From: a virus
Lineage: Duplodnaviria; Heunggongvirae; Uroviricota; Caudoviricetes
IMG/VR virus record: IMGVR_UViG_3300037466_003757
Coordinates: 118,680 to 172,958 of that record
DNA length: 54,279 nucleotides
Reading direction: 5' to 3' (one strand)
Part shown: one piece after another, positions 5,520 through 33,963 of the stretch
How the letters are laid out: each line of letters begins with the position of its first letter
Numbering within the stretch: position 1 is the stretch's first letter
The notes under the pieces: model-generated
Told to the model about the DNA's origin: nothing
The model's input: the letters and a program-made list of their open reading frames with translations, nothing else
Databases searched by the model: none
Position numbers and translations under genes: made by a program

Positions 5520-5882
5520 ATGGAGTACACCAAGGTTCTCGATTTCCAGCGCGCTCTGAACGCCGTTCACCAGCGTGACAAGCGGAACGCTCTGCATGTC
5601 TCCTACGCCGAGATCAAGACGCTCGTCGAGCGCGGTCAGGAGATGCTCGAGGAGATCGAGTCCGACGGCAACGAGGACATTACGTCGGCTGCCACCGCGT
5701 CGCAGAAGAAGCGCGGTATCGACGTCTCCGAGCAGGACGGAGTGGACGCGTACTCGTCCCGTTACTCCGGCACCTACGCGGATCGTTCGGTCACCGTTCC
5801 GGACTCGCCCGCCGAACTGGACGACTCCGACGCGGACGACGGTTTGAGCGACGACGAGAACACCGCTTTCCCGCGGTACTGA
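5520..5882 (+). CDS. Small acidic early protein
   Basis: AAAGGAA RBS, high-GC3 codons, own promoter and downstream hairpin; acidic C-terminus. Confidence 0.75.
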   Translation: MEYTKVLDFQRALNAVHQRDKRNALHVSYAEIKTLVERGQEMLEEIESDGNEDITSAATASQKKRGIDVSEQDGVDAYSSRYSGTYADRSVTVPDSPAELDDSDADDGLSDDENTAFPRY

Positions 5883-5891
5883 CTCCGTCAC

Positions 5892-5924
5892 GAACGCCCT
5901 CGCACACCACGTGCGGGGGCATTC
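5892..5924 (+). terminator. Hairpin, probable intrinsic terminator
   Basis: GAACGCCCTCGCAC-ACCAC-GTGCGGGGGCATTC immediately after the stop at 5882. Confidence 0.55.
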
Positions 5925-5929
5925 GCCTA

Positions 5930-5958
5930 TTTACACACTCGTACTAGTGTGATACGAT
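5930..5958 (+). promoter_or_regulatory. SigA-type promoter TTTACA-17-TACGAT with TG extension
   Basis: -35 at 5930-5935, -10 at 5953-5958. Confidence 0.7.
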
Positions 5959-6003
5959 ACGTTTAAGGAAACGAACGCTGCTTTCCACGACAGGACAGGA
6001 CAA

Positions 6004-6747
6004 ATGACGAAACGACGAATCAACAAAAATATGGCGAGCATCGCCTATCGGGATCACCGGGACGCTCAGAAGGCACTCAACCGTAAGGTCGCCATGGGCG
6101 AGATCGAGGATACCATCGACGAGATTTCGATGATCCAGGCGACCTCGACCGGTCTGAGTCTCGCACTCGCGATCACACCGGAGCACCCGTACTGGGAGCA
6201 CGGACCCATCCATATCTTTCAGGGCGATATCACCGATCTGCCGATCAAGTTCGACGCGATCGTGAACGCCGCCCGTCCCTCACTCCTCGGTGGAGGCGGA
6301 GTCGACGGAGCCATTCACAAGGCGGGCGGACACGCCATCGTGAACGAGATCCACGATCTTATCGACAGCGGCGAGATCGAGACTCCGTTCCGTTCGGGCG
6401 AAGCGGTCATCACGAACGCCGGGCGGATGCGTACCGACTACGTCATCCACGTCGTCGGTCCGGTCTACGACAATCGGGACGATTCCGAACAGTTGGTCCG
6501 GAAGCAGACCGATCTGTACAACTCGTATCTCGCCGCGATCGAACTCGCCGAGAACTGGAATCTGAAGCGTATCGCATTTCCGCTCATTTCGTCCGGCTCG
6601 TACAGCTGGCCTCTCGACGACGCGGCGAATCTCGCGGTTCGTGCCGTTCTCGACTCGGAGACCATGATTTCGGTGACGTTCGTCGCGCGTACCAACGAGA
6701 CGTTGATGGCGATCGAAGACGCGGTTACGCAAGTACTGCAGTTCTGA
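6004..6747 (+). CDS. Macro domain (ADP-ribose binding/hydrolase) protein with N-terminal extension
   Basis: IFQGDIT...DAIVNAA..SLLGGGGVDGAIHKAGG, GEAVITNAGRM...VIHVVGP, IAFPLISSG. Confidence 0.9.
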   Translation: MTKRRINKNMASIAYRDHRDAQKALNRKVAMGEIEDTIDEISMIQATSTGLSLALAITPEHPYWEHGPIHIFQGDITDLPIKFDAIVNAARPSLLGGGGVDGAIHKAGGHAIVNEIHDLIDSGEIETPFRSGEAVITNAGRMRTDYVIHVVGPVYDNRDDSEQLVRKQTDLYNSYLAAIELAENWNLKRIAFPLISSGSYSWPLDDAANLAVRAVLDSETMISVTFVARTNETLMAIEDAVTQVLQF

Positions 6748-6797
6748 TCAACCGAACACTTCGATTCTCGTCGTACGTATAACGTACGGCGAGTTTC

Positions 6798-6807
6798 GTG
6801 ATACTAT
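6798..6807 (+). promoter_or_regulatory. Extended -10 promoter (GTGATACTAT)
   Basis: Motif match upstream of the kinase-TS operon. Confidence 0.6.
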
Positions 6808-6858
6808 TACCTGTGCGGGACGCGCACAACTCATCACGAAGAATAGGGGAGTGAGTAC

Positions 6859-7659
6859 GTGCCGATCGTAATTCTCGAGGGTTGTGACGGGGCCGGCAAA
6901 ACAACTCTTGCCGAAGAGATTCAAGATGTCTGGTTTCGGATCAAGCAACCGGAAGACAATCGAATCCCGCAAGTGACGACAATTCATTTCGGACCGCCCG
7001 ATCCGATAACGTCCGACGAAACTCTCGAAATGTACGGAGCACGACTTCGAAAACGACTTCTTCGTGATATCGAGGCATTCGATCACACCGATTCGACCAA
7101 ATTACTTATTGTCGATCGGCTTCACATCGGATCGTACGTGTACGGTAATCTGTTCCGACCCGAGACATCGGTCGGCGGATGGGGCGAACTCGGACGTGAC
7201 GGTCTGTCGTACGTTGACGACGCATACGCTGCCAAAGGCGCTGTCATGGCAATTCTTCTTCCCGACGCCGGTACACTCGTTCGTCGCTCAGCATCGCGTG
7301 TGGACGAGTTCCTCGATTCCGTTTCTTTGTCCGTCCCCGGCGACAGTAACGCTGCATCGGAACGTGCACGGCAATTGGTCGAGATTGCGACTGCATACGA
7401 GGTGTTCGTTCGGATGTACGGCAGCGATTACGCCACGTACCGTCGAATCGGACATCCGTATTACACGGATCCGGAACGTAATCCCGGATATCCCGACATC
7501 GCTTACGAAACGGACGTCAAACTGGTCGCTGCTGACATTGTTGGACGTGCAATCGATGCAAGTCTCGATGTCGCGCGAAACGAGGCAGACATTCTGGATC
7601 CCGACGGATCGATCAGACGAGCAATCGCCGAAGACCGATTGAAGATGGAGAAGGAATGA
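6859..7659 (+). CDS. Thymidylate-kinase-like dNMP kinase
   Basis: IVILEGCDGAGKTT Walker A; IVDRLHIGSYVYG (DR motif); overlaps the TS-like gene. Confidence 0.8.
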   Translation: MPIVILEGCDGAGKTTLAEEIQDVWFRIKQPEDNRIPQVTTIHFGPPDPITSDETLEMYGARLRKRLLRDIEAFDHTDSTKLLIVDRLHIGSYVYGNLFRPETSVGGWGELGRDGLSYVDDAYAAKGAVMAILLPDAGTLVRRSASRVDEFLDSVSLSVPGDSNAASERARQLVEIATAYEVFVRMYGSDYATYRRIGHPYYTDPERNPGYPDIAYETDVKLVAADIVGRAIDASLDVARNEADILDPDGSIRRAIAEDRLKMEKE

Positions 7660-8546
7660 AGGCTTTCGAATTCGACAACGCCCACCAGGGATTTCCGAAG
7701 CTTCTCGATTATGTCCGTCTGAACGGCGTCGAGCGTCCGAGTCGTGGTGGATCCATGTACGAAGTCGAGGACGTCACCGTTTCGTTTCCTGCGGGACCGC
7801 GGTACGAAGTACCGGTACGTAAGGGCAGCGCACCGTTGATCGGATATATGGAGGGCGCACAACTCGTCGGAGCATTCGAAGCGAACGACGTCATGAAAAA
7901 GTTGTGGCCGAAATACTTCGATTTCTCCGACGGATACGGAAACTACGGCGCCCGTATGTCGAATTCGGATCAGCTTGCATGGGTTTTCTCGGAACTCAAG
8001 GACAATCCGGACACTCGTCGCGCTGTTGTCACGATGTGGGATCCGTCGATGGACGTTCCGCCGTCGCACATGGATCACCCATGCACGATCGGCATCATTT
8101 TTCGCGTTCGTGACGGATATTTGAACATGACGGTCACGATGCGTTCGCAGGATCTGATTCTCGGTCACGGACCAGATATCATTCAGTTCGGAATGCTGCA
8201 GCAGACATTCGCGACGGCGTTGGAACTCGAATGCGGTACGTATACGCATCACATGATCTCGTGTCATATCTATGAACGTGATATTCCGCAAGCGTGTCGA
8301 TTCCTGAACGAGTTGGATGTTACGCAAATTCGGGCGAAATACCACGACGAACCACAGACCATCGCACCGTTGAGTTGTCCCGGATGGACATTCGAGCAAA
8401 TTCAAAACGAAGCGAAGAAGTCGCTGACACTAAGCGAGAACGGCGACAAACTCGATCTCGAGTTCGGGACTCCGCTCGGTTTCTCGATTCATTCGAAAGC
8501 GCATCTGCGTCTGCTCAATATCGCGTTGAAGGACATTCGGAAATGA
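7656..8546 (+). CDS. Thymidylate synthase homologue, dCMP-modifying type (probable dCMP hydroxymethylase-like)
   Basis: DTRRAV, catalytic HPC, MRSQD...G...D and HIYE motifs; Asp (codon 8175-8177) at the position of E. coli TS Asn177. Confidence 0.8.
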   Translation: MKAFEFDNAHQGFPKLLDYVRLNGVERPSRGGSMYEVEDVTVSFPAGPRYEVPVRKGSAPLIGYMEGAQLVGAFEANDVMKKLWPKYFDFSDGYGNYGARMSNSDQLAWVFSELKDNPDTRRAVVTMWDPSMDVPPSHMDHPCTIGIIFRVRDGYLNMTVTMRSQDLILGHGPDIIQFGMLQQTFATALELECGTYTHHMISCHIYERDIPQACRFLNELDVTQIRAKYHDEPQTIAPLSCPGWTFEQIQNEAKKSLTLSENGDKLDLEFGTPLGFSIHSKAHLRLLNIALKDIRK

Positions 8547-9322
8547 CTCGATTGATCAACGTCATCTGCGTACCTGGTACGTTCGAGCGTACCGGTGGAT
8601 CCGTTGTCACGGGAATGCTCGCAAACGTCGTACCGCATCTCGACGAGCGATTTCTTCCGATGCAGGCCGATTATCCGGCAGCGTACGGAATTCCGATGGG
8701 CGAAGCAGCGAGTATTCAGACCGGCGTGACGAACGTGCTTACCATGATCAGAAATGCACCGAATCCAGTCGTTCTCATCGGATACTCACAAGGCGCGCAA
8801 GTCGTTCGTATGATTCTCTCCGAACTGGCAGCCGGACTGCATCCCGACCTCCAAGTCATCGGCGCCGCATTGATAGCAGATCCATGGCGAGAACCCGGAG
8901 TTGCGAACGGAACACCAGATTTACGGACCAGATTGAACGGTTGGGGAATTGCTGGATCGGGTGGTGACGTTCCAGAAAATATCTGGTTCTGCGAGATTGC
9001 GTATCCGGGAGATATGATTCCGAACGCGGACGGCGATAATCTCGTCCGTATTTTCGCAGACTGGACCGCGTGGATGTCAGTCAGTGACATGATCGGATGG
9101 GGCAACGACATCCTGAACAAGATCCGTTCGAATCGGTTCCAACGGGTAGTAGTCAACTGGCGGAATCCGTTCTCCGCGATTCAGCAAATTCGTCGCTCCG
9201 AGGAAACCGTCAGAGGATACCTGACCGGTACGCACACATGTTACGGTGTGGCACTCGTACCGGGTACGAACATCACATACTGCCAGTATCTGGCCGAACA
9301 AATGAACGCAAACGTGTTCTAA
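8543..9322 (+). CDS. lysB: Lysin B-like cutinase-family serine esterase
   Basis: VICVPGT, YPA, VVLIGYSQGA nucleophile elbow, ALIADPWR, GWGIAG, PGDMI. Confidence 0.8.
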   Translation: MTRLINVICVPGTFERTGGSVVTGMLANVVPHLDERFLPMQADYPAAYGIPMGEAASIQTGVTNVLTMIRNAPNPVVLIGYSQGAQVVRMILSELAAGLHPDLQVIGAALIADPWREPGVANGTPDLRTRLNGWGIAGSGGDVPENIWFCEIAYPGDMIPNADGDNLVRIFADWTAWMSVSDMIGWGNDILNKIRSNRFQRVVVNWRNPFSAIQQIRRSEETVRGYLTGTHTCYGVALVPGTNITYCQYLAEQMNANVF

Positions 9323-9351
9323 CTATCTCTCCCAGCGAGAGTGAGAAAAGA

Positions 9352-9960
9352 ATGACAGAGACAAAGACAAAGACAACCGTACACGTGACAAACAAACGCC
9401 GCGATCGCAAAAAGGTCGAACGCTGCAGTTGGACGAAGACCAGCGTGCTGGCAGAATACACGGCAAATCCGACATCGGTCTATGCTGCACGATTCAACGG
9501 AACCGACGAACAGCTCAACGCACTCGACAAGGTTGGCGTCCCGTTCGATGCCAGATGGTTCGTCTGGTGCGCCGTATTGAACCGTCACGTTCCTCTTCGT
9601 AAAGGCGCGTGGGTCGTCAAGGACGTCGAAGGATGGCAGGTGATGAGCGATGCGAAGTTCACCACACTGTACTCTAGAACCGTTGTCGACGGACCGCAGA
9701 CCGATATCGCGGTCAAGCTTCCGCGGCCCAATACGAACGCCGGTGCGGTGCCGAACGAAGTTCGATTCACGAGCAACGACTTCGAGATCGCCGTTGTAAA
9801 CGGTCGTGTCTATGCCGGATCACTCGATTCGAAAGACTGGGAAACGCAATTCGACGGCAAGACGATGGAAGACTACGCGCTCGCATTGCTTGCCGCGAGT
9901 CACTACGCCCAGGGCAAACTCGCGTACAAGGCTGACATGACGGACGGGAGCAATAAGTGA
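9352..9960 (+). CDS. Hypothetical protein
   Basis: ATG at 9352 after GTGAGAAAAG; coupled to the next gene by overlap. Confidence 0.65.
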   Translation: MTETKTKTTVHVTNKRRDRKKVERCSWTKTSVLAEYTANPTSVYAARFNGTDEQLNALDKVGVPFDARWFVWCAVLNRHVPLRKGAWVVKDVEGWQVMSDAKFTTLYSRTVVDGPQTDIAVKLPRPNTNAGAVPNEVRFTSNDFEIAVVNGRVYAGSLDSKDWETQFDGKTMEDYALALLAASHYAQGKLAYKADMTDGSNK

Positions 9961-11303: not shown

Positions 11304-12000
11304 GTGGTCGACCGCTTCGATGATGAAGTTCCGCTTCAAAGAACTTTGAGCATATACGCTTTACATATCGGAGATTATCGATATCGCTACGTGGGCTTAA
11401 CGAGTATAGACGTTCAAGTTCGGCTAAGACAACACGTCCGTAACGCAGACGTCGGAGTTCGGACGCCAATTTATGACTGGATGCGTCATCATGGTGCGTG
11501 GAAAGTACGTGTTGAAACGCTTGAAGTTTGCGATTCGCTTGATGATCTCGATTTGGCAGAGAAAAAGTGGATTGCGATTATCAGAAACCGTGATAATAGT
11601 CTGCTAAACGTTCTTGATGGTGGATATGGCAATTTCGGCTATCGATTCACTCAAGAGCAACGTATGGCGTTGAGCGTAACGATGAAAACGGTCAATGAGA
11701 CGTTGATCAGAAAGCCGTTATCAACGGAATCACGTCGTAAAATGAGCGAATCTGCCAAAAATCGCGAACAAAACGCGTATAGCTCTGAAGCCAAGCAGAA
11801 CATGGCGATTGCGCAACGTAAGCGGTATCAATCAAAACCGATGTCTGACGAGACCAAAGAAAAAATTCGTCAAGCCAATCTCGGTAAGAAAATGGACGAA
11901 GCGACGAAAAATAAAATTCGGATCGCGAATAAGGGGCAGAAGCGAACTGAAGCGCAACGTGAAACTATGAAACGTGCGCAAGCGGCGCGAAAGGCCGTCA

Positions 12001-12008
<8 letters not shown>
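11304..12008 (+). CDS. GIY-YIG homing endonuclease with NUMOD3-like repeats
   Basis: IYAL...YVGLT, RLRQH, AEKKWI, LLNV..GG; C-terminal S.ETK.KI repeats; AT-rich; overlaps the DNA polymerase start. Confidence 0.85.
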
Positions 12009-14806
<2,798 letters not shown>

Positions 14807-14807
14807 A

Positions 14808-15443
14808 ATGAAAACTTATGCTAATGCCGCCACTGTGTATGGATTGTATAGTCACGATGAACTTCGATACGTCGGTGCGACAACGATGTCGTTAAATCAA
14901 CGATTACGTCATCATTGGAATCGTTCAAAACTTAAAAACACGCCACTATATACGTGGTTGAAAACAGAAAAACGTAACGATATTGAAATTCGACCATTGG
15001 TCATTGTCGAATATTCGCAACGTTACGAATACGAACGAAACGTCATATCTGCGATGTTTGCTGCGGGTCATCCACTCGTTAATATATGGCATACACCACG
15101 CGATGCCGACATTCGCGAACGACTTGGTGGAGTAATGCGCGGAAAAAAAATGCCTGAACAAACGCGTCAAGCGATTATTAAGCATAATAGAGGACGTCAG
15201 AAGTCCCCAGAACATGCAGCAAAAATATCAGCAGCTCGACGAACTCCGAAATTACGAGCATTATCATCGTCACAAGCACGACGAATGAGTCACACTAGAT
15301 ATCATTCTGATCGATTCGTAAATCACGCATGTGAATGGTGCGCGTACGAACGCACGACTCTTGAGATGAGTTATGCATTATGGAATCGTGTATGGCTCGA
15401 TGCTGAAAAGCTTTGGAAGACAGCAAATCGAAAGTGTAAATAA
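14808..15443 (+). CDS. GIY-YIG homing endonuclease
   Basis: VYGLY...YVGAT, RLRHH, YERNVI, LVN; NUMOD3-like KSPEHAAKIS; AT-rich. Confidence 0.85.
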   Translation: MKTYANAATVYGLYSHDELRYVGATTMSLNQRLRHHWNRSKLKNTPLYTWLKTEKRNDIEIRPLVIVEYSQRYEYERNVISAMFAAGHPLVNIWHTPRDADIRERLGGVMRGKKMPEQTRQAIIKHNRGRQKSPEHAAKISAARRTPKLRALSSSQARRMSHTRYHSDRFVNHACEWCAYERTTLEMSYALWNRVWLDAEKLWKTANRKCK

Positions 15444-22413: not shown

Positions 22414-23493
22414 ATGAATCACACAGTGGCCCCACGAGCGATCGTGTCCGGATTCACTGCCGAACAGACAAACGGCAGTCCTAGAACCGGATATCCCGCA
22501 TTGTCGCCAGGTATCAAACTGGCGTTGGAAACAATGGGATACGAAACACGAATGGCACCGATGCGCGTCGATACGGTAGACGAATGGCTATCGGAATCAG
22601 ACGTTCTCGTCATGGGAATTTCTCCGATTATCGCCGTCGGGTCACGATATTTATATGGAGCCCTCGAAGCTATCCGGAAAGCGCGCCGTCACAACTGCGC
22701 GCTTGTGTTTTATATTTCGGATTGGCAGGTACCGCTTCTCACGTCGTCTGTCACGACAATTCTCAATGGACCGCACCGTCTGACTAAATATTTCATGCGT
22801 CATCGGACAGACTTCTTCTGGGCGAATCATCACGTTGATGAACTTCTCACCGTCGTACAGGCGTTGAAGGATCGTCCGTGGCCCGGTACGCTCATTCCGT
22901 CGCATCCGTGGCGTAACGATATGCCGAAAATCAGCAGATACGTTCCGGCGCGGCGACTGTATTTCTTCGATCCGACAATCGTAACGTCCGGTCAATGGGC
23001 GCCGCATTCTGTGCAGGCGACTCCGGACGAACGCAAGCGTGAATGGGTCATGGCAGCTCTCGGCGACTACGACGCATGGTTGCAGCAACAATGCGTGACA
23101 TGGCCTGTTCGGTCGTTCGGCGGTAAAACGAACTTGATCGATGAGAACGGCAACAAAATCGTCAATCCACGCGTTCAAGAACCTGTCATTCACGAGAACT
23201 ACGCGCAAGTGTGGGGTGGTCTCGGTCCGAAACACGGCGCGGACGGTATGGGATGGTGGCGCAGTCGCTGGGACTTCATCCTGAAGAACGGCGGAATTAT
23301 CTTCGGCAGCAACGAAGAGATGTCGCTGATGGGTGGTCCGTTCGTCAATCGGTTATCCGATATCGAATCGATGACGACACCGCAATTGGTCGAACTGCAG
23401 AACGCTCAGCGTGCGGCCCATCGCGTCGAAACGATGGAACAAGTCACCGAAACGTTCCGGCAAGCCATCGCGGACGCGAGGGCAGAACTGTGA
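22414..23493 (+). CDS. DNA beta-glucosyltransferase-like (GT-B) glycosyltransferase 1
   Basis: N-terminal strand-helix (AIVSG...LALETMGYE), DVLVMG, LVFYISD resembling the T4 BGT YLFTD strand; paralogous to 23684. Confidence 0.6.
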   Translation: MNHTVAPRAIVSGFTAEQTNGSPRTGYPALSPGIKLALETMGYETRMAPMRVDTVDEWLSESDVLVMGISPIIAVGSRYLYGALEAIRKARRHNCALVFYISDWQVPLLTSSVTTILNGPHRLTKYFMRHRTDFFWANHHVDELLTVVQALKDRPWPGTLIPSHPWRNDMPKISRYVPARRLYFFDPTIVTSGQWAPHSVQATPDERKREWVMAALGDYDAWLQQQCVTWPVRSFGGKTNLIDENGNKIVNPRVQEPVIHENYAQVWGGLGPKHGADGMGWWRSRWDFILKNGGIIFGSNEEMSLMGGPFVNRLSDIESMTTPQLVELQNAQRAAHRVETMEQVTETFRQAIADARAEL

Positions 23494-23687
23494 AGAACGC
23501 TATCGGGTTATGGATTTGTGCGCTTGGATTTCACAAAAAGTCTGAATGGTCCGACTTCGGAGAATTGACGACGACAAAATCAGAAGACTGCGATGACGAT
23601 ATCTTTCACGAATTCTCCGTAATACAGAAACAATGCCCGCGCTGCGGAATGGAGAAGACTCGTTTGGAATGGAGGCGAGTATATTGA
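23490..23687 (+). CDS. Small Cys/His protein (DUF1660-like)
   Basis: LWICALGFHK...CPRCG; 4-bp overlaps at both ends. Confidence 0.6.
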   Translation: MKNAIGLWICALGFHKKSEWSDFGELTTTKSEDCDDDIFHEFSVIQKQCPRCGMEKTRLEWRRVY

Positions 23688-24688
23688 AAATATTGCTCAC
23701 CGGTGGCACATCGTCGCAGACTCACGAAACGACCAAACGTCAACCAGAGACGCTGGTTGGTCTCATGGCACGCGCACTACGCGATCGTGGACACGAGGTT
23801 TACACTCGTGCATTCTCAGTTCGTGATATCGAAACTGACGACACGGGATGGGATAACGCATTCGATTTCGCGTTCGTCGGACAATCGCCATTACGAGGAC
23901 TCGGATCATCGTACTGCTACGGCGCTCTCGCCGCGCAGCATCGTTTCCGCGGTAAATGTGCGATTTTCACAGACGACACGGACACGAAGAAAATGCGCGC
24001 CGAATGGTTGATGGCGCTCAAGAAACCCGCTGATTTCGTCAAACCGTTCTGGCATTACAAGCGTGACTGGGAAACTGCACGATCGCGCGCCGTGCTTCCG
24101 CGACTTCTCGAGCAGATCGAGTGGTTGATCGGCGACGATGCATCCACATACCCGCAGACATTCGTACCGGGTTGGACGTATAACTTGGCGTTTCGTTCGG
24201 GCGTCCAGTTATCGCCACACGCGCGTTTGAGCGTTCGCGCGGCCGATCCATCGAAATGGACGCAGGCGACCGTGACACGTACAATCCCAGACGAGAACGA
24301 ACGTTATTGGGCGTCGTGTTGGCGCGCGAACGCGCGTGAAGTACAAAAAATGGGAATGCAAAGCTGGGCGTTCCAGGAGATCAATCGTCTCACCTGGAAA
24401 GAACTGGGATCCGCTTCCGGACTTCTCGCTCCGTCTGCTGCATGGTCACCAGAAGTTCGTCTCGCCGTCGAATCAGGAGTTCCCGTCGCGACCGAATGGC
24501 GCGTGATGGGCCCTCAATTCGGTGAGCCGTTCGAGTCACTGGCCGCCAATATGGAAGAAATGAAACAGAATGAGCTTGACGATCTCGCCGCGCAACAAAA
24601 AGCGGCGTTGACCGATAAGGGATTCGAGAAAGACGAATTCCCGAACGTACTCGAAGACATGATCAACAAGACTCTGGAGGCGCAGTGA
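23684..24688 (+). CDS. DNA beta-glucosyltransferase-like glycosyltransferase 2
   Basis: TTG start after GGAGG; KILLTG...ALRDRGHEV, FDFAFVG, CAIFTDD; shares SxYxYGAL with 22414. Confidence 0.6.
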   Translation: MKILLTGGTSSQTHETTKRQPETLVGLMARALRDRGHEVYTRAFSVRDIETDDTGWDNAFDFAFVGQSPLRGLGSSYCYGALAAQHRFRGKCAIFTDDTDTKKMRAEWLMALKKPADFVKPFWHYKRDWETARSRAVLPRLLEQIEWLIGDDASTYPQTFVPGWTYNLAFRSGVQLSPHARLSVRAADPSKWTQATVTRTIPDENERYWASCWRANAREVQKMGMQSWAFQEINRLTWKELGSASGLLAPSAAWSPEVRLAVESGVPVATEWRVMGPQFGEPFESLAANMEEMKQNELDDLAAQQKAALTDKGFEKDEFPNVLEDMINKTLEAQ

Positions 24689-25236
24689 CCGACGATTGGA
24701 AGTGGCTGGAATCCACCCGTCAGCTTCAGATCGAAGCTTACGGTAAGGATCCAGGCGAACTTGTCGGGGACGAGCGCGGTAATTACTGGACAACCATGAT
24801 GTTCGCGGCTAGTGATGAGATCTCCGAATTCGGTAATGAGATCCACTGGAAGCCGTGGGGGAAAAACCGCGGAGAAATTATCAATAAATCTGCGGCACTT
24901 GGTGAACTTGTCGATGTCCAACATTTTGTTGCAAATTTACTGCTCTCGATTGGCGTCACCGAAGACGAATTCTGGGCTGCGTATCGTGAAAAGCAAGAAC
25001 GTAACAAAGCTCGTCAACAAACCGGCGGTGGCTACGACAGCAAGAAAACGAAATGTCCGAATTGTAAGCGTGAACTCGACAAGCCCGGTTCGTACCGTTC
25101 GCTCAGGGTGAGAGTCGGTACCGGTGCGGGTACTCAGGAAGACGTGGAAAGCGGTATTCTGACGCATTCGTTACAGTGCGTCTCATGTTTCCATCAGTTC
25201 GATTACGAGCTCAAGACGGGAGAAAAACTTCCATGA
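24685..25236 (+). CDS. All-alpha dimeric dCTPase/dUTPase (T4 gp56-like) with C-terminal Zn ribbon
   Basis: DEISEF...WKPW...GELVDVQHF...N.ARQ...GY; CPNC...CVSC. Confidence 0.8.
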   Translation: MTDDWKWLESTRQLQIEAYGKDPGELVGDERGNYWTTMMFAASDEISEFGNEIHWKPWGKNRGEIINKSAALGELVDVQHFVANLLLSIGVTEDEFWAAYREKQERNKARQQTGGGYDSKKTKCPNCKRELDKPGSYRSLRVRVGTGAGTQEDVESGILTHSLQCVSCFHQFDYELKTGEKLP

Positions 25237-26483
25237 GCCCCAAGATCGCGTGTCTTTTGACGTCGCCCAAGTATTTCGGTGGTGCTGAGACAGCACTCAT
25301 GTTTACTGTCGACGGTCTTCGCGAAATCGGATGCGACGTCACGGTTATCGCGTCGTCGGCGACCAATGGTAAGGGCTGGACGCAACAGTCGCTCGACGTC
25401 GTAGATCGGATCACCAGTCCACGGAAAGAATCGCTGGAAGACGTTCTGTCCGCAGAAAACTTTGACGGAATCGTTCTCAGCAACGTATTTTTTCCGGACG
25501 AGTCGATGGCACAAGTCTTCTACGAATCCGACACGATCGCCCCGTGGACGTCGGGATGGCACAACAACATCGTTCTGAACAACATCTCAGTCGACAAGAT
25601 CAAATCGGCGCCGAAGTGGTGCGGTTCGTTCCTGGCGTTCTGGCCGACCGTCAAGGACGCCATCGATATCGATTCGTGGGTCGAGTCCATCTTGCCGTAC
25701 CGGTCAAATCCGGCGTTGACATCGATCAATCGTGACAAACTGTCGCCCGAATACGACTTCGGATTTATCGGGCGCGCCGACCCGAAGAAGGGTGTACTGA
25801 CGTTCGTCGCCGCGATGGAATGGGCATCACGTCATGCGGATGATCAATCGTTCACAGCGTTGATCGCCGGTGCGCCGAGCGACGTTGCGGGTGGTCCTCA
25901 CATTTGGCACATCTCGCGCTTTATGGAGAATCTCGATTGGGAGATCACGCGTCACGGTCCGAAAATGAAAAGCAACTGGACGGCCGTACATCCGAAGACC
26001 GGAAGTCGCGTCGACTACACCGGACCGTACAACTACAGTGACCTTCCGCGACTGTTCTCGAATATCAAATGCGTCGTCAACTTCACGTCCGATCGTTGCG
26101 CGAACTCACATCTCGAATACTCCGCGCTCGAGGCATTGGAAGCCGGATGCGTTTTGTCCGCGCGAGCTGACTGGCCCGATTATCATTATCCGACTGCTCC
26201 CGCTATTTTTGGTACGCCTATAGCCGCGCATCGCGTCATGAGCAAAAATCGAATCATTTACAATTCGTTCAAGCCGGAAAATATCGATACCGTTTACGCA
26301 GAGGCGGGCGCGCATTTTGCCGGACTGGTTCCGAAGATTCGCGCAATTGACGTTCAGGGTTCGTCACGGGACAAGTATCTGCTAAGCGTTGCAAGAAATC
26401 GTCAGGTCGTCGCCGACGCGCACGATCCGAAAATCGCGGCGAAAGCATATTTGACATCGCTCGGTCTTGAATTGAATCAGTAA
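25233..26483 (+). CDS. GT-B glycosyltransferase, T4 alpha-glucosyltransferase-like
   Basis: FGGAET...GLREIGCDV, FGFIGRADPKKG, HLEYSALEALEAGC (EX7E-type). Confidence 0.75.
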   Translation: MSPKIACLLTSPKYFGGAETALMFTVDGLREIGCDVTVIASSATNGKGWTQQSLDVVDRITSPRKESLEDVLSAENFDGIVLSNVFFPDESMAQVFYESDTIAPWTSGWHNNIVLNNISVDKIKSAPKWCGSFLAFWPTVKDAIDIDSWVESILPYRSNPALTSINRDKLSPEYDFGFIGRADPKKGVLTFVAAMEWASRHADDQSFTALIAGAPSDVAGGPHIWHISRFMENLDWEITRHGPKMKSNWTAVHPKTGSRVDYTGPYNYSDLPRLFSNIKCVVNFTSDRCANSHLEYSALEALEAGCVLSARADWPDYHYPTAPAIFGTPIAAHRVMSKNRIIYNSFKPENIDTVYAEAGAHFAGLVPKIRAIDVQGSSRDKYLLSVARNRQVVADAHDPKIAAKAYLTSLGLELNQ

Positions 26484-26484
26484 G

Positions 26485-27051
26485 ATGACCGGATACTGGA
26501 TTTGGGATGAGTCTAAAGAGATTACCGCATACGCTCGTATGAGATTGAATATTGCGTATATCGGTGTCACTTCTAATCCGAATAAACGTTTCCGCGATCA
26601 TCTACGAGATTTTCCGGATAGCGTCATTATTGTTCTCGAAACCGGTATTAAACCAATCAATGCGTGGGATAAAGAACGATATTGGCATACTTTTTTCGAA
26701 GATCTTGATATGATTATTGAGTCACATACTCAATACGATGTATCAGATATAGGCCATAAAGCTCGAAATTACGGTCCGCTTTCTGATGAACAGAAACAGC
26801 AAATTTCTTTGACTCTTAAAGGACGTTCATCGATTTTTAAGGACGTTCCAAAAACCGAAGAGCACAAGAAAAAGCTTTCTGACACCAGTAAACGAAACGA
26901 TTCGGGCAAACGATTTGGCGAGCATAGCAAACGATCGCGGGCTATGTGCATCGAATGCAACTTTGAATCCAATCCAGCAGGAATCGTCAAGCACCAGAAG
27001 AACTCTGGACATAGCGGAATTAGGAAGTGGTTAAATGATCCCGTTTGCTAG
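26485..27051 (+). CDS. GIY-YIG-like homing endonuclease
   Basis: AYIGVTSNPNKRFRDH, KERYW, NUMOD3-like KTEEHKKKLS, C-terminal CxxC...H...H; AT-rich. Confidence 0.75.
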   Translation: MTGYWIWDESKEITAYARMRLNIAYIGVTSNPNKRFRDHLRDFPDSVIIVLETGIKPINAWDKERYWHTFFEDLDMIIESHTQYDVSDIGHKARNYGPLSDEQKQQISLTLKGRSSIFKDVPKTEEHKKKLSDTSKRNDSGKRFGEHSKRSRAMCIECNFESNPAGIVKHQKNSGHSGIRKWLNDPVC

Positions 27052-28333
27052 CGTTCAGGGTTTGGGGGGCGGGATGGAGCTTGGAATCATCCAATCGGGT
27101 AGTTTTGAGCTTGTACATCGTACTGGTGGATTGGATCTCGGCGCGCCACTCGTAGAGCAAAATCGTAAATTATACGGTTGGAATTGGACGTCCAATTTTA
27201 CGAGTAATCAACGAAAATGGCAACAAGTAGACGTTGCGTTTGTATCTAGTAACGCTCCTTGTTCAGCTTTTTCTACATTGACGTCGAAAACTCTTCGCGG
27301 AACATCGGCGAAAGTGTTGCAGTATACAGACGAGGTATTCGACTTCGTCGCGATGCAGAAGAAAACACCGCTGCTCGTCTCGATCGAGTCCGTTCAGCAG
27401 GCGTTCTCGCTCGGTCGTCCATATTTCCAGCAGAAACGTCTCGAGCTCGAAGAGAAGACCGGCAAACAGTGGGATCTCATTTGGGTATTCCAGTCGAATC
27501 AGTCGCTCGGTGGCGCGTCCGTTCGTCGTCGCGTATTCATCACGCTCTCACAGATTCCATTCGGTGTCGAGTACGCGCAGCCCGCTCGTATCGCACGATT
27601 CGGTGACGCGGTTCGCGATCTGCAAGGTCTCGAATTAACCACAACGTTGCAGCCGTACCGTCGCCCGTCAACGTGGTGGTCGACATCTAGACGCGCTGCT
27701 GACGGCGTGGACGGTCATTTCAACGATCCGCGATGGAATAACGAGTTCGCCGAATTAATCGCCATGTCGGACGCTATGGGGCAACGATGGGCCGCTGGGG
27801 AGTCGTTAGAAACAGTGCTTCGGCGAGTGTGGGCGCACTATCAGCGTTTACCGCACGAATGGCAGCGAAACGTTCACAAGCACGAACCGCGCAATTTCGG
27901 TATGGGAATCAATCAGACGTCGTGCTGGGATCCGGACGCTCTTGGACGTGTCGTTACGGGCGCGGGTCCTATGATGTCCGTGCATTGGGCCGAACCACGA
28001 TTGCTGACATATCGTGAAGTCTTTCGTTTGCAGGGATTCCCGGACACGTATCGGCTTTACGGTTCACGTGACTATAAAAAAGCATCAACAGTGGCTGGAA
28101 AGGGAGTTCCAGTCGATGCGGGACGCTGGCTCGGCGAATGGGTGGGCAAAGCGTTCAACGGTGAGCCGGGTACGATTCTCGGTGAGAAAATCGGCGATCG
28201 TGAACGCAAGATCGATCTTACGCACGCGTGGAAGAACACGTACGAGTTCGAAGCACCATGGCGGTACGCGAAACACAGTCTGCACGAACAAATCGGTAAT
28301 CCGGATTGGGATCACATGCAGCATACGGCATAG
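27035..28333 (+). CDS. Divergent C5-cytosine DNA methyltransferase-fold enzyme
   Basis: Motif I QGLGGG, IV NAPC, VI IESV, VIII RRRVFI, IX LTYREVFRLQGFPD, X AGKGVPV. Confidence 0.85.
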   Translation: MIPFASVQGLGGGMELGIIQSGSFELVHRTGGLDLGAPLVEQNRKLYGWNWTSNFTSNQRKWQQVDVAFVSSNAPCSAFSTLTSKTLRGTSAKVLQYTDEVFDFVAMQKKTPLLVSIESVQQAFSLGRPYFQQKRLELEEKTGKQWDLIWVFQSNQSLGGASVRRRVFITLSQIPFGVEYAQPARIARFGDAVRDLQGLELTTTLQPYRRPSTWWSTSRRAADGVDGHFNDPRWNNEFAELIAMSDAMGQRWAAGESLETVLRRVWAHYQRLPHEWQRNVHKHEPRNFGMGINQTSCWDPDALGRVVTGAGPMMSVHWAEPRLLTYREVFRLQGFPDTYRLYGSRDYKKASTVAGKGVPVDAGRWLGEWVGKAFNGEPGTILGEKIGDRERKIDLTHAWKNTYEFEAPWRYAKHSLHEQIGNPDWDHMQHTA

Positions 28334-29343: not shown

Positions 29344-30933
29344 ATGACAGCTCCCGATCCCGAAGTGGTGGGCGAAGAGCGAGTACCATCGCTCGACGAG
29401 CTCAGCACCAAGATCAAACCGATCGCCTTCGAACCCGAACCGGACCCGCCGACAGCGGAACCGATATCCGACTTCGAACGAGCGCGACTCGATCCCTTAC
29501 GTCGCCGTCGCCATCGTAGTGTGGCGGACGCGTCGACCACGCTTCCACCGGTACCACCGACCTCTTCTGCGGCGTCTGCTTCGACTAGTATCGTGATACC
29601 GATACCGGAGTCCGTCGCTAGTCACATAAATCGTGATTGGTACACGCCTTTATCGAAAACGGAACGTGAAAACGTTCTCGGTACCGAACTGATAGACGAT
29701 ACAATGGTCTCCGGTTCTCCTACGGTCACGTTTACGGCTGATTCGGTGTCCATCAACATGACGGAACCGAATCGCGGTGATATCGTCGTAATGAACGACG
29801 GAACTTCGATCACCAAGATGACCACCGTATATGCCACGATTGCGCACAATTTGCAGATGGTGCGTGCACGTGATCCGAAGAAAGAATTTCTTGCCGGCAC
29901 GCCTGTCGATGCGATTTTAGGTTGCGTCACCGACAGTTGCAAATACGATTCCAATCTCGACTACGCACGCTATCTGTTCGCTGCGTACACCGGTTCGATC
30001 TTTGCCGAGAACGAGCACAAACCGCAGTTCGTACCGGAATCTCCGGAGAAATACACCGCCGTCAAAATCCAGAAGAAGACAAACGGAGATTCAGTGTCGA
30101 CCACGTCCGAAAACTCAGGTGCGCCGATCACTCGTCCGAACGGTGAAATCTATCATCCACGACGGATTCCGGTGACATCTTCGGACGTCGACAAACGCGG
30201 TATGTACGATGTTCATTTCGTCCGACTGGCGCGTGAGAACGGAATGAGCGTTCTTGCGTTCGGCGATCCCGGTACCGGTAAGACAGCGTTGTTCGAAGCT
30301 GCGTTCTCCGATATCATTACGTTGAGCGGTAACAGTGACATCGAAGCGTCCGATTTTTTTGGATCCTACGTACCGGACGGAGACAATGGATTCGTTTGGC
30401 GTGACGGACCGCTTCTCACCGCGGCGAAGGAGGGACGACCGTTTGTTATCGAAGAGATCAATCTGATCGATTCGCGTGTTCTCGCACTTGTCTATCCAGC
30501 GATGGACGGTCGTGGTGAGGTCGAAGTCACGATCAATCCGACGATCGGAACCGTGAAGGTCGCGGACGGATTCTACGTCGTCGCAACCTGCAATCCGGAT
30601 GCGCCCGGTTCGATCATGTCTGACGCGATGATGTCGCGTTTCGCGATTCATCTCGAAGTCACCACCGATTACGAACTGATGCGTATTCTCGGCGTACCGA
30701 ACAGTATCGTCACCGCGGCGCAGAATCTCGATACAAAGCGTCAAAACGGTGAAGTCATGCGGTCGCCTCAAGCTCGTGAGCTTATCGCATATCGCAATAT
30801 CAATAGCGTATTCGGTCAACGTGCTGCGTTGGCCAATCTGATCTCGCAGGCTCATCCCGGCGATCGTGACGAATATTCTCGAGTTCTCAAGACCACGTTC
30901 GGTCAACAGAGCGTCACTTCGCTTCGAGTCTGA
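29344..30933 (+). CDS. MoxR/CbbQ-type AAA+ ATPase with long N-terminal extension
   Basis: FGDPGTGKT, FVWRDGPL, IEEIN, VVATCNP, MSRF. Confidence 0.85.
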   Translation: MTAPDPEVVGEERVPSLDELSTKIKPIAFEPEPDPPTAEPISDFERARLDPLRRRRHRSVADASTTLPPVPPTSSAASASTSIVIPIPESVASHINRDWYTPLSKTERENVLGTELIDDTMVSGSPTVTFTADSVSINMTEPNRGDIVVMNDGTSITKMTTVYATIAHNLQMVRARDPKKEFLAGTPVDAILGCVTDSCKYDSNLDYARYLFAAYTGSIFAENEHKPQFVPESPEKYTAVKIQKKTNGDSVSTTSENSGAPITRPNGEIYHPRRIPVTSSDVDKRGMYDVHFVRLARENGMSVLAFGDPGTGKTALFEAAFSDIITLSGNSDIEASDFFGSYVPDGDNGFVWRDGPLLTAAKEGRPFVIEEINLIDSRVLALVYPAMDGRGEVEVTINPTIGTVKVADGFYVVATCNPDAPGSIMSDAMMSRFAIHLEVTTDYELMRILGVPNSIVTAAQNLDTKRQNGEVMRSPQARELIAYRNINSVFGQRAALANLISQAHPGDRDEYSRVLKTTFGQQSVTSLRV

Positions 30934-30941
30934 ACGGAAAG

Positions 30942-31886
30942 TTGGACAACATGACATCGACATCTTATGACGATCTGACATTCTGGTATCCGCGCGAAAT
31001 GCTGACATCCGGACTGGATGCGGCTACACCGTTCGCGTTTCAGCGTCCTCCACAACTGAATCCCAAGAAAATTTTGCATCAGCGCGCGAGTGGACTGTAC
31101 TTCGAAGAATTCACGTGCATCGCACCGTGGAACGTGACTACGAATCCGCAGCAGGTCAATCTGGTTGACGGTATCATCAACGTCAATCGCTATATGGCGG
31201 TGGGTCCGTACGTTTTGCAGTGCGTCGATCAATTCAAGTTGGAATGGAATCTGCTGACATCCGATAAACCGATCGTCCAGAAGTATAAAGAACGTGTCGC
31301 TGAAACCTGCGAGAACATCGTCGAATATGCCACGATGCATATCACGTCGAATATCTACGACGAATGGAAAAAGTACGAAGAATACGACGGAAACAGCGTA
31401 GAAGACGCGTTCGTTTTCTTTTTCACGCAATGGGAGCAGTTCACGAAACGCAAACCGATCGAGCGTGTTATCAACGCGGATGATGGTGACTCGTCGTATA
31501 TTCGTGTCAATGCGTGCGTATCGTCGGATCCCGTTCTCGTCCCACTGACGGATAGTGACATTCAATCTGCCAAAAATGGTTCAGACTTTATCACCGCGAA
31601 TCTCGTCAGTATCGGCGTCGAAATGTGGAACGGTATCGCGGAAATGTGCGAACCACTGTCGCCGATACCCGGCAAATACCGGATACCGAATCTCGCGATG
31701 CACAATACGTCCGAGGTCGTCTCACGTGACGGCGCGATCTGGCACGTTCTGAAGTCGCTCTCTTTTGTCAAGGAGAGCAGTCAATTCAGCGAAGACACTG
31801 ACGACGGTCTCACTTATACGGAGATTCTACCGACCGATATGGACGTCGAAGTCACGATCAAACGAGCGCTCATACAAGCGAGTTAG
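30942..31886 (+). CDS. Hypothetical protein within the MoxR-VWA operon
   Basis: 314-aa ORF tightly spaced between the AAA and VWA genes. Confidence 0.7.
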   Translation: MDNMTSTSYDDLTFWYPREMLTSGLDAATPFAFQRPPQLNPKKILHQRASGLYFEEFTCIAPWNVTTNPQQVNLVDGIINVNRYMAVGPYVLQCVDQFKLEWNLLTSDKPIVQKYKERVAETCENIVEYATMHITSNIYDEWKKYEEYDGNSVEDAFVFFFTQWEQFTKRKPIERVINADDGDSSYIRVNACVSSDPVLVPLTDSDIQSAKNGSDFITANLVSIGVEMWNGIAEMCEPLSPIPGKYRIPNLAMHNTSEVVSRDGAIWHVLKSLSFVKESSQFSEDTDDGLTYTEILPTDMDVEVTIKRALIQAS

Positions 31887-31896
31887 GTGACACCGC

Positions 31897-33963
31897 ATGT
31901 CGATTATGGAGTCCAAACCGGACACACCAGACTCACTGCTCAATCTGTCGAGCGTTCTTACTCGATTCGTATCGACGTACGATTTAACGCCAACGCGTGA
32001 CTCGGTCGTATTCTGCGCGGGATCGGAAACACCGGAATGGGAATCGGATCCCGCCGCGTGGTACAACTTGCATACACACGACATCGTATTGAATATTGGT
32101 AAAGCGTGTCAATCGATCGGAAAACGAAAGATTCTCACGTCGTCCGGTATGATCGCGGACGCTGAATTCGGTTCCAGTATCCCTGACGACGGTAGTATTT
32201 CGGAATCGATTGTCGCGGAGATGTCGCGTCTGATCGAACGACGTAGTCAAGCCAATAGTCGTGATAAGTACCATACGTTTGTTCCGGACGAGTTTTCGAT
32301 CAATACGATACCCGTCATCGACATTCATCATTCGTTGAAAACTGCACTCAACGCGCCAGCACGACGTACGTCAGCAGCAGACGTGATAGCTTGTACTGCA
32401 CTGGCTATGGCGATTCACGAAACCGGTCACGCGGTATTCTCGCGATTCATGGGCGAAACCGACGGCTGGATCAGCGAACTGTCCTGGTACGAACGTCGAA
32501 TTTTGACCGTTTTCGAAGAACTACGGTCCGAACGGCAGCAGTTGAAACGACTCGGATTCGGCGCATCGCTTCTGCGATTCGCTGCGGACGTGATTGTATC
32601 ACCGAAAGAGATCGAAGAAAGTATCAGCAAGTCGCGTGAAGATGGCGAAATCAGTATTCCCAGTTACGCGCTGAACGTCACGCTGTGTCTCGGTCGTATT
32701 CATTACGACGTTTTCCGTGAGGACGAGACACGATCTGTTCGAAATCTCACTAAGCATCTGCTCGGTGAGAATCGACTCAATGAGATGTTCGATATTTACA
32801 AGTCGTATAGTTCGATCCGACTTGCCGATGAAAAATCGATGACCGAATGTGTCAAACGATGGGTGGAACTGTTTCCGGAACCCGAAAATCCGCATAAAAG
32901 TATCGTCATTCTTTCGGTTCCTCCAATTCCAGGTGACAGTTCTGAGAGTTCAGGCGACGGCGAACCATCGGATAGTTCGTCTACTCCATCGCCGGGTGGT
33001 AAGTCGGAAACGATCGATCTTCCCGGTCTTCCGACCGAAATCGGAGAAGCGCTCGATAAAGCCGTCACAGAAGCCGAAGTTGCTCCAGATGCTATAGGTG
33101 GCAGTACTACGCCTGCGCACAAACCGACGCCATCGGATGCGGCGTATAAAAAGGCAGTTCATGCTGATCAACGCAACTCGCTGACGTCGAAACCGACCGC
33201 GGAGGATCGAGTACTCGCACGACGTCTCGGTCACGAACTGCAGAATATCGATTTATCGGATCGTGTCAAGGAACTTCGCCCCAGCGATATGCCTCCGGGA
33301 CGTCTGGACAGTCGCGCCGCAGTACAGCGTCAAGCCGAACTTGCGGAACGACGGATTCCGCAATCACAACCGTTCAAGCGTGTGATACATTCCGCGTCGA
33401 ATCACAGTCGCCTCGTCGTCGGCGTTCTCACCGATACGTCGGGATCTCACGGTTGGGCGGAGACGTTCAACGCACGTATGACGTACATTATCGGAAACGC
33501 GGTACACCAGATCAACGGTCGCTTCGCTGGCGTGACGTACGGTGACCAGGCGATTATCACCGTCGGTCCGACCGAACGTCCGAACGCCATCACGACGATT
33601 CGGGCGAACGGAAGTCAAGAAGAATTCGATCTTGCATGTGGTGCACTCGATCACATGTTGAAACTCACCGTGCCGATGCGGGGAGAGACGCGCATTCTGT
33701 TCGTCATCGGTGATGGACAGATGGTCAAGCAATACGAGATGAAGAAAACAGCGGATTGGGTACAGCGAATGCGAGTATCCGGTTGCGCGATCGTGTGGAT
33801 CACCACGTATACGCCGGACCATTACTATGACGGTATGCCGATGACTCCGAAGGGAGCAACGTCAATGATCATCAATCAGCAAGCCGTCAAACAAAATCCG
33901 ACGTCCGCCATCGCTGAAGTAGCGAATCATGTAAAGAAGGCGATTCGTCACAAGACTCGGTAG
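31897..33963 (+). CDS. CobT-like VWA-domain protein with HExxH motif
   Basis: IHETGH, FEELRSE, GRLDSRAAV, MIDAS DTSGS, LFVIGDG. Confidence 0.85.
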   Translation: MSIMESKPDTPDSLLNLSSVLTRFVSTYDLTPTRDSVVFCAGSETPEWESDPAAWYNLHTHDIVLNIGKACQSIGKRKILTSSGMIADAEFGSSIPDDGSISESIVAEMSRLIERRSQANSRDKYHTFVPDEFSINTIPVIDIHHSLKTALNAPARRTSAADVIACTALAMAIHETGHAVFSRFMGETDGWISELSWYERRILTVFEELRSERQQLKRLGFGASLLRFAADVIVSPKEIEESISKSREDGEISIPSYALNVTLCLGRIHYDVFREDETRSVRNLTKHLLGENRLNEMFDIYKSYSSIRLADEKSMTECVKRWVELFPEPENPHKSIVILSVPPIPGDSSESSGDGEPSDSSSTPSPGGKSETIDLPGLPTEIGEALDKAVTEAEVAPDAIGGSTTPAHKPTPSDAAYKKAVHADQRNSLTSKPTAEDRVLARRLGHELQNIDLSDRVKELRPSDMPPGRLDSRAAVQRQAELAERRIPQSQPFKRVIHSASNHSRLVVGVLTDTSGSHGWAETFNARMTYIIGNAVHQINGRFAGVTYGDQAIITVGPTERPNAITTIRANGSQEEFDLACGALDHMLKLTVPMRGETRILFVIGDGQMVKQYEMKKTADWVQRMRVSGCAIVWITTYTPDHYYDGMPMTPKGATSMIINQQAVKQNPTSAIAEVANHVKKAIRHKTR

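Follow-up and report, generated by a model that had tools for sequence, protein, structure and literature searches.

A phage-only clade of cytosine C5-methyltransferase-fold proteins with lysine in motif X, encoded alongside a putative 5-hydroxymethylcytosine pathway

Introduction

In the cytosine C5-methyltransferase (C5-MTase) M.HhaI, Gln82 of motif IV and Asn304 of motif X flank the group that is transferred from S-adenosylmethionine (SAM), and replacement of these residues admits larger groups; changing Gln82 alone (Q82A) lowers methylation about 16-fold (PMC3526304). An Asn-to-Lys change at motif X, engineered in M.MpeI (N374K) and M.MedI (N377K), enables the use of carboxy-S-adenosylmethionine (carboxy-SAM), and with SAM these enzymes still methylate, to more than 99% for M.MedI N377K and to 28% for M.MpeI N374K (PMC12015181). 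A basic residue also occurs naturally at this position in the phage enzyme CmoX, where Arg350 touches the carboxymethyl group (PMC12783734). The subject of this study is a gene for a C5-MTase-fold protein with a natural lysine, Lys356, at motif X. It lies in a 54,279-nucleotide stretch of DNA (hereafter the window), positions 118,680 to 172,958 of IMG/VR virus record IMGVR_UViG_3300037466_003757, which is complete at 172,958 bp and has terminal repeats.

Two pathways of DNA hypermodification serve as further points of reference. The 5-hydroxymethylcytosine (5hmC) pathway of phage T4 consists of the dCMP hydroxymethylase gp42, the kinase gp1, the dCTPase gp56, and the alpha- and beta-glucosyltransferases, and includes no enzyme of the C5-MTase fold. 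Thymidine hypermodification, to which the 5-hydroxymethyldeoxyuridine (5-hmdU) DNA kinases belong, works on uracil-derived bases with other transferases. Burke et al. (2021) mention phage C5-MTase clades, found in TET contexts, whose motifs IX and X depart from the norm and which showed no detectable methylase activity; we found no description of a lysine-type clade in the literature.

An earlier note on the window, made from its sequence alone, proposed the protein as a candidate DNA carboxymethyltransferase that might use carboxy-SAM or another SAM analogue rather than SAM. Here we show that Lys356, on which that proposal turned, is no one-off but defines a clade, and that K-type genes, as we call them, form a large phage-only branch of the C5-MTase fold that has apparently not been described before. 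Our favored reading, to which we give a probability of about 0.4, is that the enzyme acts on DNA as part of a T4-like 5hmC hypermodification pathway, carrying out a Cys-dependent reaction at C5 other than methyl transfer, and that carboxy-SAM is not its donor.

Results and discussion

A conserved catalytic core beside an altered pocket

The K-type open reading frame is preceded by an AGGAAG Shine-Dalgarno-like site 8 nt 5' of its ATG, and its product matches Pfam PF00145 with an E-value of 5e-11 (43.1 bits; cut-off 22). Against the NCBIfam model TIGR00675 (dcm) it scores 26.6 bits, and the cut-off of 100.65 is not reached. An AlphaFold2 model built from an alignment of 55 homologues has a predicted local distance difference test (pLDDT) score of 92.5 and superposes on known enzymes of this fold, with VIA-align Z-scores of 29.8 for DNMT1 (root-mean-square deviation 3.3 over 355 residues), 29.2 for ZMET2, 27.2 for M.HaeIII, 24.6 for M.HhaI, 23.7 for M.MpeI, and 22.9 for SpCmoX (8YF3). 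The fold shared with the canonical enzymes M.HaeIII, M.HhaI, and DNMT1/ZMET2 includes a DNMT1-like target-recognition region. The Pfam match and the DNMT1 superposition bear out the earlier note's assignment of the gene as a C5-MTase homologue.

The catalytic Pro-Cys, the motif VI Glu, the motif VIII Arg-x-Arg, and motif IX of the canonical enzymes are all present, as the earlier note had read them, and Pro75, Cys76, Glu118, Arg164, and Arg166 are invariant across the K-type family. What sets the protein apart from canonical C5-MTases is a group of substitutions around the cofactor and C5: Asn to Lys in motif X, Gln to Ser in motif IV, Asn to Ser in motif VI, and Phe and Gly to Gln and Leu in motif I (Table 1). 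Three alignments agree on the position of Lys356. phmmer places AGKGVPV on VGNAVAV of ZMET2, and the family profile sets wGKGvpv over IGNAVPV of M.HaeIII and wGKGvp over VGRMVP of SpCmoX, so that Lys356 stands on the motif X Asn in the first two and on Arg350 in the third. The profile alignment to M.HaeIII also gives the register of motif I, QGLGGG on FSGAGG, with Phe replaced by Gln and the first Gly by Leu. The motif I and motif X assignments of the earlier note thus hold; an alternative motif I register, VQGLGG, was ruled out by the same hidden Markov model alignment.

Across the K-type family, the motif I Phe position is occupied by Gln, Asn, or His, and the motif III Asp position varies among Gln, Glu, and Asn. 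The motif II Glu of canonical enzymes is Gly in the subclade of this phage, where Asp34 is a possible substitute, and is retained as Glu in about two-thirds of the wider family. Judged from these positions, the adenosine contacts appear less well preserved in K-type enzymes.

Given the roles of Gln82 and Asn304 in M.HhaI, the K-type changes hit exactly the two positions that gate the surroundings of C5. The K-type pocket beside C5 is predicted to be widened and cationic. Such a pocket fits an extended anionic transferable group, and it fits equally a C5 substituent bearing oxygen on the base itself. The clade thus combines a rebuilt C5 pocket with an intact set of residues for attacking cytosine C6 covalently. 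The engineered enzymes M.MpeI N374K and M.MedI N377K carry the same motif X Asn-to-Lys change (PMC12015181, PMC13288465), and the use of carboxy-SAM by the former, which the earlier note had cited, is confirmed in PMC12015181. Unlike the K-type protein, in which three more pocket positions are changed, they are single-site mutants that still methylate, and they need supplied carboxy-SAM, whereas no source of carboxy-SAM is evident for the K-type enzyme.

Lysine at motif X defines a phage-only clade

Membership of the K-type clade was defined by Gly-Lys in motif X, P-C-S/A in motif IV, E-S-V in motif VI, and an intact set of catalytic Cys, Glu, and Arg residues, and the protein studied here has them all. 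All 90 homologues examined (29-76% identity) have Gly-Lys at motif X and keep Cys76, Glu118, Arg164, and Arg166; with few exceptions the Cys is followed by Ser or Ala, and motif VI reads E-S-V. An exhaustive profile search returned 302 clusters (50% identity) at E ≤ 1e-30. Among the best 146 of these 302, the aligned motif X residue is Lys in 138 of 143, Arg in two, and another residue in three; representative clusters have Ser after Pro-Cys (114/127) and E-S-V (136/142).

No close K-type relative was found among 185,579 prokaryote species genomes (one genome per species). The 51 distant cellular homologues recovered by that scan are canonical at the same positions, with Asn at motif X in 51/51 (every hit in which this motif was readable), Gln after Pro-Cys in 49/51, E-N-V in 39/50, and F-x-G in 28/29. 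The K-type protein differs from canonical C5-MTases in distribution as well as in sequence: its clade is phage-only, its own score lies far under the dcm cut-off, and the near-complete genomes that encode K-type enzymes all have a dCMP-hydroxymethylase homologue. The named relatives are lytic actinophages, with Gordonia phages Forza, Sixama, GodonK, Phendrix, and GMA2 at about 60% identity and the enzymes of Micrococcus phage Kurnik and Actinomycetia phage DSL-LC01 at about 32%. No DNA near-identical to the window was present in the phage collection searched.

One metagenomic relative (P0145, 752 residues) contains an intein with Hint and LAGLIDADG domains directly before the catalytic Cys of Pro-Cys; this Cys would double as the +1 splicing nucleophile. 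Inteins tend toward spots where the active site matters, and the position of this one therefore suggests that the catalytic Cys matters.

The K-type gene lies within a putative 5hmC pathway

The window encodes a thymidylate-synthase homologue whose best PDB match is the CMP hydroxymethylase MilA and which scores far under every thymidylate-synthase equivalog cut-off. Where E. coli ThyA has Leu143, Asp169, and Asn177, all 18 homologues examined have Asp/Asp/Asp, a combination given as the signature of 5-hydroxymethyl-dCMP synthases and MilA (PMC13326640). The N177D change brings a preference for dCMP, L143D/E distinguishes enzymes that hydroxymethylate, T4 gp42 and MilA among them, and D169N is the mark of 5-hydroxy-dCMP synthases (PMC13326640); the last of these is not seen in the copies of K-type phages. 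The synthase homologue is also present in Forza, GMA2, Kurnik, DSL-LC01, and 12 of the 14 IMG/VR records with a K-type enzyme, including all nine of those that are at least 90% complete. A kinase-like gene lies directly upstream and a dCMP deaminase gene follows, and ThyX was not found in the phage's own genome. Based on these genes, the phage probably replaces cytosine by 5hmC, which would leave little free C5 in its own DNA.

Putative counterparts of each component of the T4 pathway are found in the window, including a MazG-like NTP pyrophosphohydrolase. This gene has a homologue in 37 of 43 K-type loci, and in 28 of them it lies on the same strand within about 150 nt upstream of the K-type gene, often with overlapping stop and start codons. 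Its metal-binding acidic residues Glu45, Glu48, Glu74, and Asp77 are invariant. In the present genome the two genes are 1.8 kb apart, with a glycosyltransferase gene and a homing-endonuclease gene in between. Compared with T4, which lacks an enzyme of this fold, the constant presence of the K-type gene by the NTPase is the new element.

The other partners vary among relatives. C-terminal fusions to FkbM-type or UbiG-like class I methyltransferase domains occur in 8 of 26 long K-type forms, and in other relatives such proteins are encoded next door; some relatives have a nucleotidyltransferase gene nearby. One relative is fused to a 5-hydroxymethylpyrimidine DNA kinase domain (HMUDK_hel, 5e-40), and another has an HMUDK_hel kinase gene 8 kb away. 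The genome studied here has no homologue of the fused methyltransferase domains or of the HMUDK_hel kinase. All of these K-type accessories act on hydroxyl groups, and none is CmoA-like. The kinase domain, through these two relatives, is shared with thymidine hypermodification, although the K-type setting differs from that pathway's uracil-derived bases and other transferases. By analogy, this link suggests that the 5-hydroxymethyl group may be activated and then substituted.

A favored reaction and the points against it

The most specific form of the favored reading, which we put forward tentatively and regard as somewhat unlikely when taken by itself, is that the K-type protein is a natural 5hmC-derivatizing enzyme that has abandoned methyl transfer and exchanges the 5-methylene substituent of 5hmC in DNA by Cys-C6 catalysis. 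The mechanism itself belongs to the favored reading as a whole: Cys76 would add to C6 of a flipped-out 5hmC or of its activated ester, and Lys356 would sit on the leaving oxygen or phosphate, holding or protonating this oxygen or anionic group of the 5-methylene. The group would then be exchanged in a sequence-specific manner. In vitro, ordinary C5-MTases deprived of SAM turn cytosine into 5hmC with formaldehyde and couple thiols to 5hmC (PMC7176277), which places 5-methylene chemistry through a Cys-C6 adduct within reach of the fold.

Several considerations weigh against both the general and the specific form. The reaction is read wholly from genes, and we can name neither a nucleophile nor a co-substrate for the exchange. 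If cytosine is fully replaced before replication, an enzyme acting at the level of DNA would seem redundant. About two-thirds of the wider family keep the motif II Glu, and motif I has an aromatic or hydrophobic side chain two positions further on, so that an adenosyl cofactor may still be used. As for the genomic context, phages that are related may share gene order without any functional tie between the genes, only one cluster, from a 5.6-kb contig, shows the kinase fusion, the MazG-like protein could act on dCTP or dUTP, and actinophage glycosyltransferases can also serve virion glycosylation.

There is nevertheless a real chance of new chemistry. Whatever its reaction, the K-type enzyme would be an unrecognized component of a 5hmC pathway that has been studied since T4, and it represents an abundant phage-only branch (more than 300 clusters at 50% identity) of a textbook family, changed at the residues that decide the surroundings of C5. 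Should it derivatize 5hmC or install a new group, it would bring new DNA base chemistry and a possible tool for sequence-specific 5hmC labeling. An exchange of the 5-methylene substituent would do for cytosine what hypermodification does for thymidine, and it would be a natural form of the 'atypical' reactions known only in vitro. Cultivable relatives, namely the Gordonia phages Forza, GMA2, Sixama, and GodonK and the Micrococcus phage Kurnik, allow direct testing.

Alternative explanations

The alternative that survives best is that the protein makes 5-methylcytosine from SAM in the ordinary way, its motif variants being peculiar to the lineage, and acts on unreplaced cytosines or on host DNA. 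The complete C5-MTase fold and catalytic residues speak for it, as do the SAM-dependent methylation retained by the engineered Asn-to-Lys enzymes and the motif II Glu of most of the wider family. We consider it unlikely, given that four coordinated pocket changes are near-invariant over more than 300 clusters and occur in none of the 51 cellular homologues, that loss of the motif IV Gln reduces methylation, that the dcm score is so far below its cut-off, and that several relatives carry an additional bona fide SAM methyltransferase domain. To this extent the earlier note was right to doubt SAM as the cofactor; the other half of its proposal, carboxy-SAM as the donor, found no support, as set out below.

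A DNA-level C5-hydroxymethylase that mops up escaped cytosines, converting them to 5hmC for tailoring, would form an 'exclude plain C' module with its dCTPase-like neighbor. The tight operon linkage with the MazG-like NTPase and the action of every variable partner on hydroxyl groups are consistent with this role, and M.HhaI is able to hydroxymethylate cytosine without SAM (PMC7176277). The role is nonetheless rather improbable, as it would duplicate the work of the universal dCMP-hydroxymethylase homologue and leaves the lysine without an obvious function. Moreover, we know of no physiological one-carbon donor for the C5-MTase fold, the in vitro reaction taking free formaldehyde.

Some other reaction that begins with attack on C6 might also be catalyzed: transfer from a different anionic SAM analogue, aminocarboxypropyl transfer, or a C-to-U deamination of unmodified host DNA, brought about by Lys-assisted protonation of C5, that would serve as host shut-off. 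This range of reactions is in keeping with a conserved catalytic core beside a remodeled cofactor pocket. C5-MTases deaminate cytosine when SAM is lacking, and the best PHROG match of the nearby MazG-like gene is a dUTPase family. We judge it improbable all the same, since no synthase for another cofactor is conserved beside the K-type gene.

We regard as very improbable the reading from which the earlier note started, a natural carboxy-SAM-dependent C5-carboxymethyltransferase in which Lys356, like the engineered Lys of M.MpeI N374K, would bind the carboxylate through a salt bridge and which would write 5-carboxymethylcytosine. Its appeal is clear: Lys356 aligns with both CmoX Arg350 and the engineered Lys, the Asn-to-Lys change gives carboxymethyl transfer in M.MpeI and M.MedI (PMC12015181), CmoX likewise has Ser after its catalytic Cys, and the predicted pocket is wider and cationic, as an extended anionic group would require. 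The idea of a natural carboxymethyltransferase is also no longer new, natural 5-carboxymethylcytosine having been known since CmoX in December 2025.

Against it speaks the cofactor, whose synthase, CmoA, we could not find. The NCBIfam CmoA model, which matches the verified CmoA of phage S-B43 at 2.5e-34, detected none in the complete genome studied here or in the 17 other records searched (Forza, Kurnik, DSL-LC01, and the 14 IMG/VR records with a K-type enzyme). phmmer searches with SpCmoA and SpCmoY returned no homologue in 43 K-type neighborhoods (up to ±10 kb) or in the phage's own genome. The earlier note's remark that no CmoA is visible in the window thus extends to all 172,958 bp, and its suggestion that the cofactor would come from the host or the rest of the genome fared poorly, as none of 401 sampled genomes of the class Actinomycetes, presumably that of the hosts, scores above the CmoA cut-off, and five come out as CmoA-like in score. 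By comparison, 4257 CmoA genes lie on the contigs of 5615 Arg-type CmoX (PMC12783734). The methyltransferase domains fused to some K-type proteins were considered as CmoA-like synthases and ruled out, since they match FkbM- and UbiG-like families. Uridine 5-oxyacetic acid (cmo5U) has been reported in mycobacterial tRNA, and so some actinobacteria may possess a non-homologous route to carboxy-SAM. As it stands, carboxy-SAM has no visible source in K-type phages, and as the K-type donor it is poorly supported. Cytosine would, in addition, probably already be replaced by 5hmC in such a phage.

A direct comparison with CmoX of Synechococcus phage S-B43 (PDB 8YF3; PMC12783734) leads the same way. 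Both are phage enzymes of one fold, both substitute a basic residue for the motif X Asn, both have a catalytic Cys followed by Ser (SPPCSAFS in CmoX), and both are encoded within a hypermodification cluster with a pyrophosphatase gene nearby. CmoX, however, combines Arg with SPPC, whereas K-type enzymes combine Lys with N(A/P)PC (N-A-P-C here and N-P-P-C in most of the family). CmoX also keeps E-N-V and its Phe/Glu/Asp adenosine contacts, unlike the K-type protein, in which Phe25, Glu47, and Asp69 align with Gln8, Gly31, and Asn54. CmoA and usually an amide ligase are encoded alongside CmoX, and neither was found for the K-type gene. Comparison of the K-type family with CmoX by hhalign gives an E-value of 5.8e-10 at 21% identity, and the family profile is nearer to M.HaeIII (2.5e-22) than to CmoX (7e-10). 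The K-type family is absent from the 5615 CmoX candidates because that study filtered for SPPC and Arg350 (PMC12783734). The shortcut by which Asn to Lys means carboxy-SAM therefore needs correction: the analogy with the engineered enzymes fails without the cofactor's synthase.

Finally, a catalytically idle reader or base-flipping scaffold that recruits tailoring enzymes to modified cytosine would account for the fusions to tailoring domains, but it is highly improbable when the Cys, the Glu, and both Arg are invariant down to 29% identity and an intein sits at the catalytic Cys of one relative.

Neighboring genes

Features of the window are collected in Table 1.

Table 1. Features of the K-type gene and its surroundings, in window coordinates.
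Feature	Position	Strand	Evidence
K-type C5-cytosine methyltransferase-fold gene, 432 residues	27035..28333	+	PF00145 match, AlphaFold2 model, structural superposition
Remodeled motif I, Q8-G-L-G-G-G13 (canonical F-x-G-x-G-G)	27056..27073	+	Profile alignment to M.HaeIII, family columns
Motif IV, P75-C76-S77, catalytic Cys kept, canonical Gln to Ser	27257..27265	+	Family columns
Motif VI, E118-S119-V120 (canonical E-N-V)	27386..27394	+	E in 89/89 and S in 88/89 of family
Motif VIII, R164-R165-R166	27524..27532	+	R164 and R166 invariant
AAG codon of Lys356 replacing the motif X Asn, context S-T-V-A-G-K-G-V-P-V	28100..28102	+	Three alignments
P-loop dNMP/thymidylate-kinase-like gene, directly upstream of the synthase homologue	6859..7659	+	phrog_761 thymidylate kinase, 2.2e-10
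Thymidylate-synthase homologue with 5-hydroxymethyl-dCMP synthase signature	7656..8546	+	PF00303, 1.8e-23; Asp at ThyA 143/169/177
GT-B-like protein, weak lead to T4 beta-glucosyltransferase	22414..23493	+	Homologues in Forza, DSL-LC01 (annotated glycosyltransferase), and locus L010
Second GT-B-like protein, paralogue of the preceding	23633..24688	+	BLASTP to Forza gp126 and paralogues
MazG-like/dUTPase_2 NTP pyrophosphohydrolase, K-type operon partner	24685..25236	+	PF08761, 5e-8; phrog dUTPase, 5.6e-20
GT-B glycosyltransferase resembling T4 DNA alpha-glucosyltransferase	25233..26483	+	Feature score 0.98, TM 0.70 to PF11440 AGT clusters
GIY-YIG homing-endonuclease-like gene between the alpha-glucosyltransferase-like and K-type genes	26485..27051	+	Weak PF01541, 7e-4

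The stretch from the recombination genes to the K-type gene includes three GT-B-like genes. The product of the last of them is 34% identical to Forza gp127, annotated as a glycosyltransferase. None of these neighboring genes matches the Pfam families of T4 alpha- or beta-glucosyltransferase (AGT, PF11440; BGT, PF09198), and the lead to AGT comes from feature score and structure, that to BGT being weaker.

The MazG-like protein has no sequence match in PDB or NCBIfam. It ends in a CxxC...CxxC tail resembling a zinc ribbon, which is kept in many relatives. The experimentally studied CmoA-CmoY-CmoX cluster of S-B43 (locus L005, 3452-6705) has a gene for a small pyrophosphatase two genes upstream of cmoA, a position loosely reminiscent of that of the NTPase gene ahead of the K-type gene.

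The GIY-YIG-like gene immediately upstream overlaps the K-type start by 17 nt, and Forza has no gene at the syntenic place. Two further GIY-YIG-like genes, at 11304-12008 and 14763-15443, flank the genes for DNA polymerase and the ribonucleotide-reductase small subunit. Just upstream of the kinase-like and hydroxymethylase-like genes is a gene for a Macro-domain protein (6004-6747, plus strand; PF01661, 2.4e-30).

No Tet_JBP family member is listed in the six K-type neighborhoods with precomputed Pfam annotation; a search of the phage's own genome with PF12851 (TET/JBP) gave no match, but its control also gave none, so that this search is uninformative.

Downstream of the K-type gene and a WhiB gene, an AAA_5 (dynein-related/MoxR-like) ATPase gene (29344-30933, plus strand) is followed on the same strand by genes for large proteins without a family at 30942-31886 and 31897-33963. 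The order of the ATPase and the two proteins is kept in Forza (gp119-gp117) and in GMA2. In one subclade (metagenomic loci L006 and L008, about 5868-9603), the glycosyltransferase slots are held by a 505-residue NTP_transf_3 nucleotidyltransferase and a family-less protein of 490-505 residues, and a sugar-nucleotide cluster (UDP-glucose dehydrogenase, epimerase, and GT2) lies on the opposite strand.

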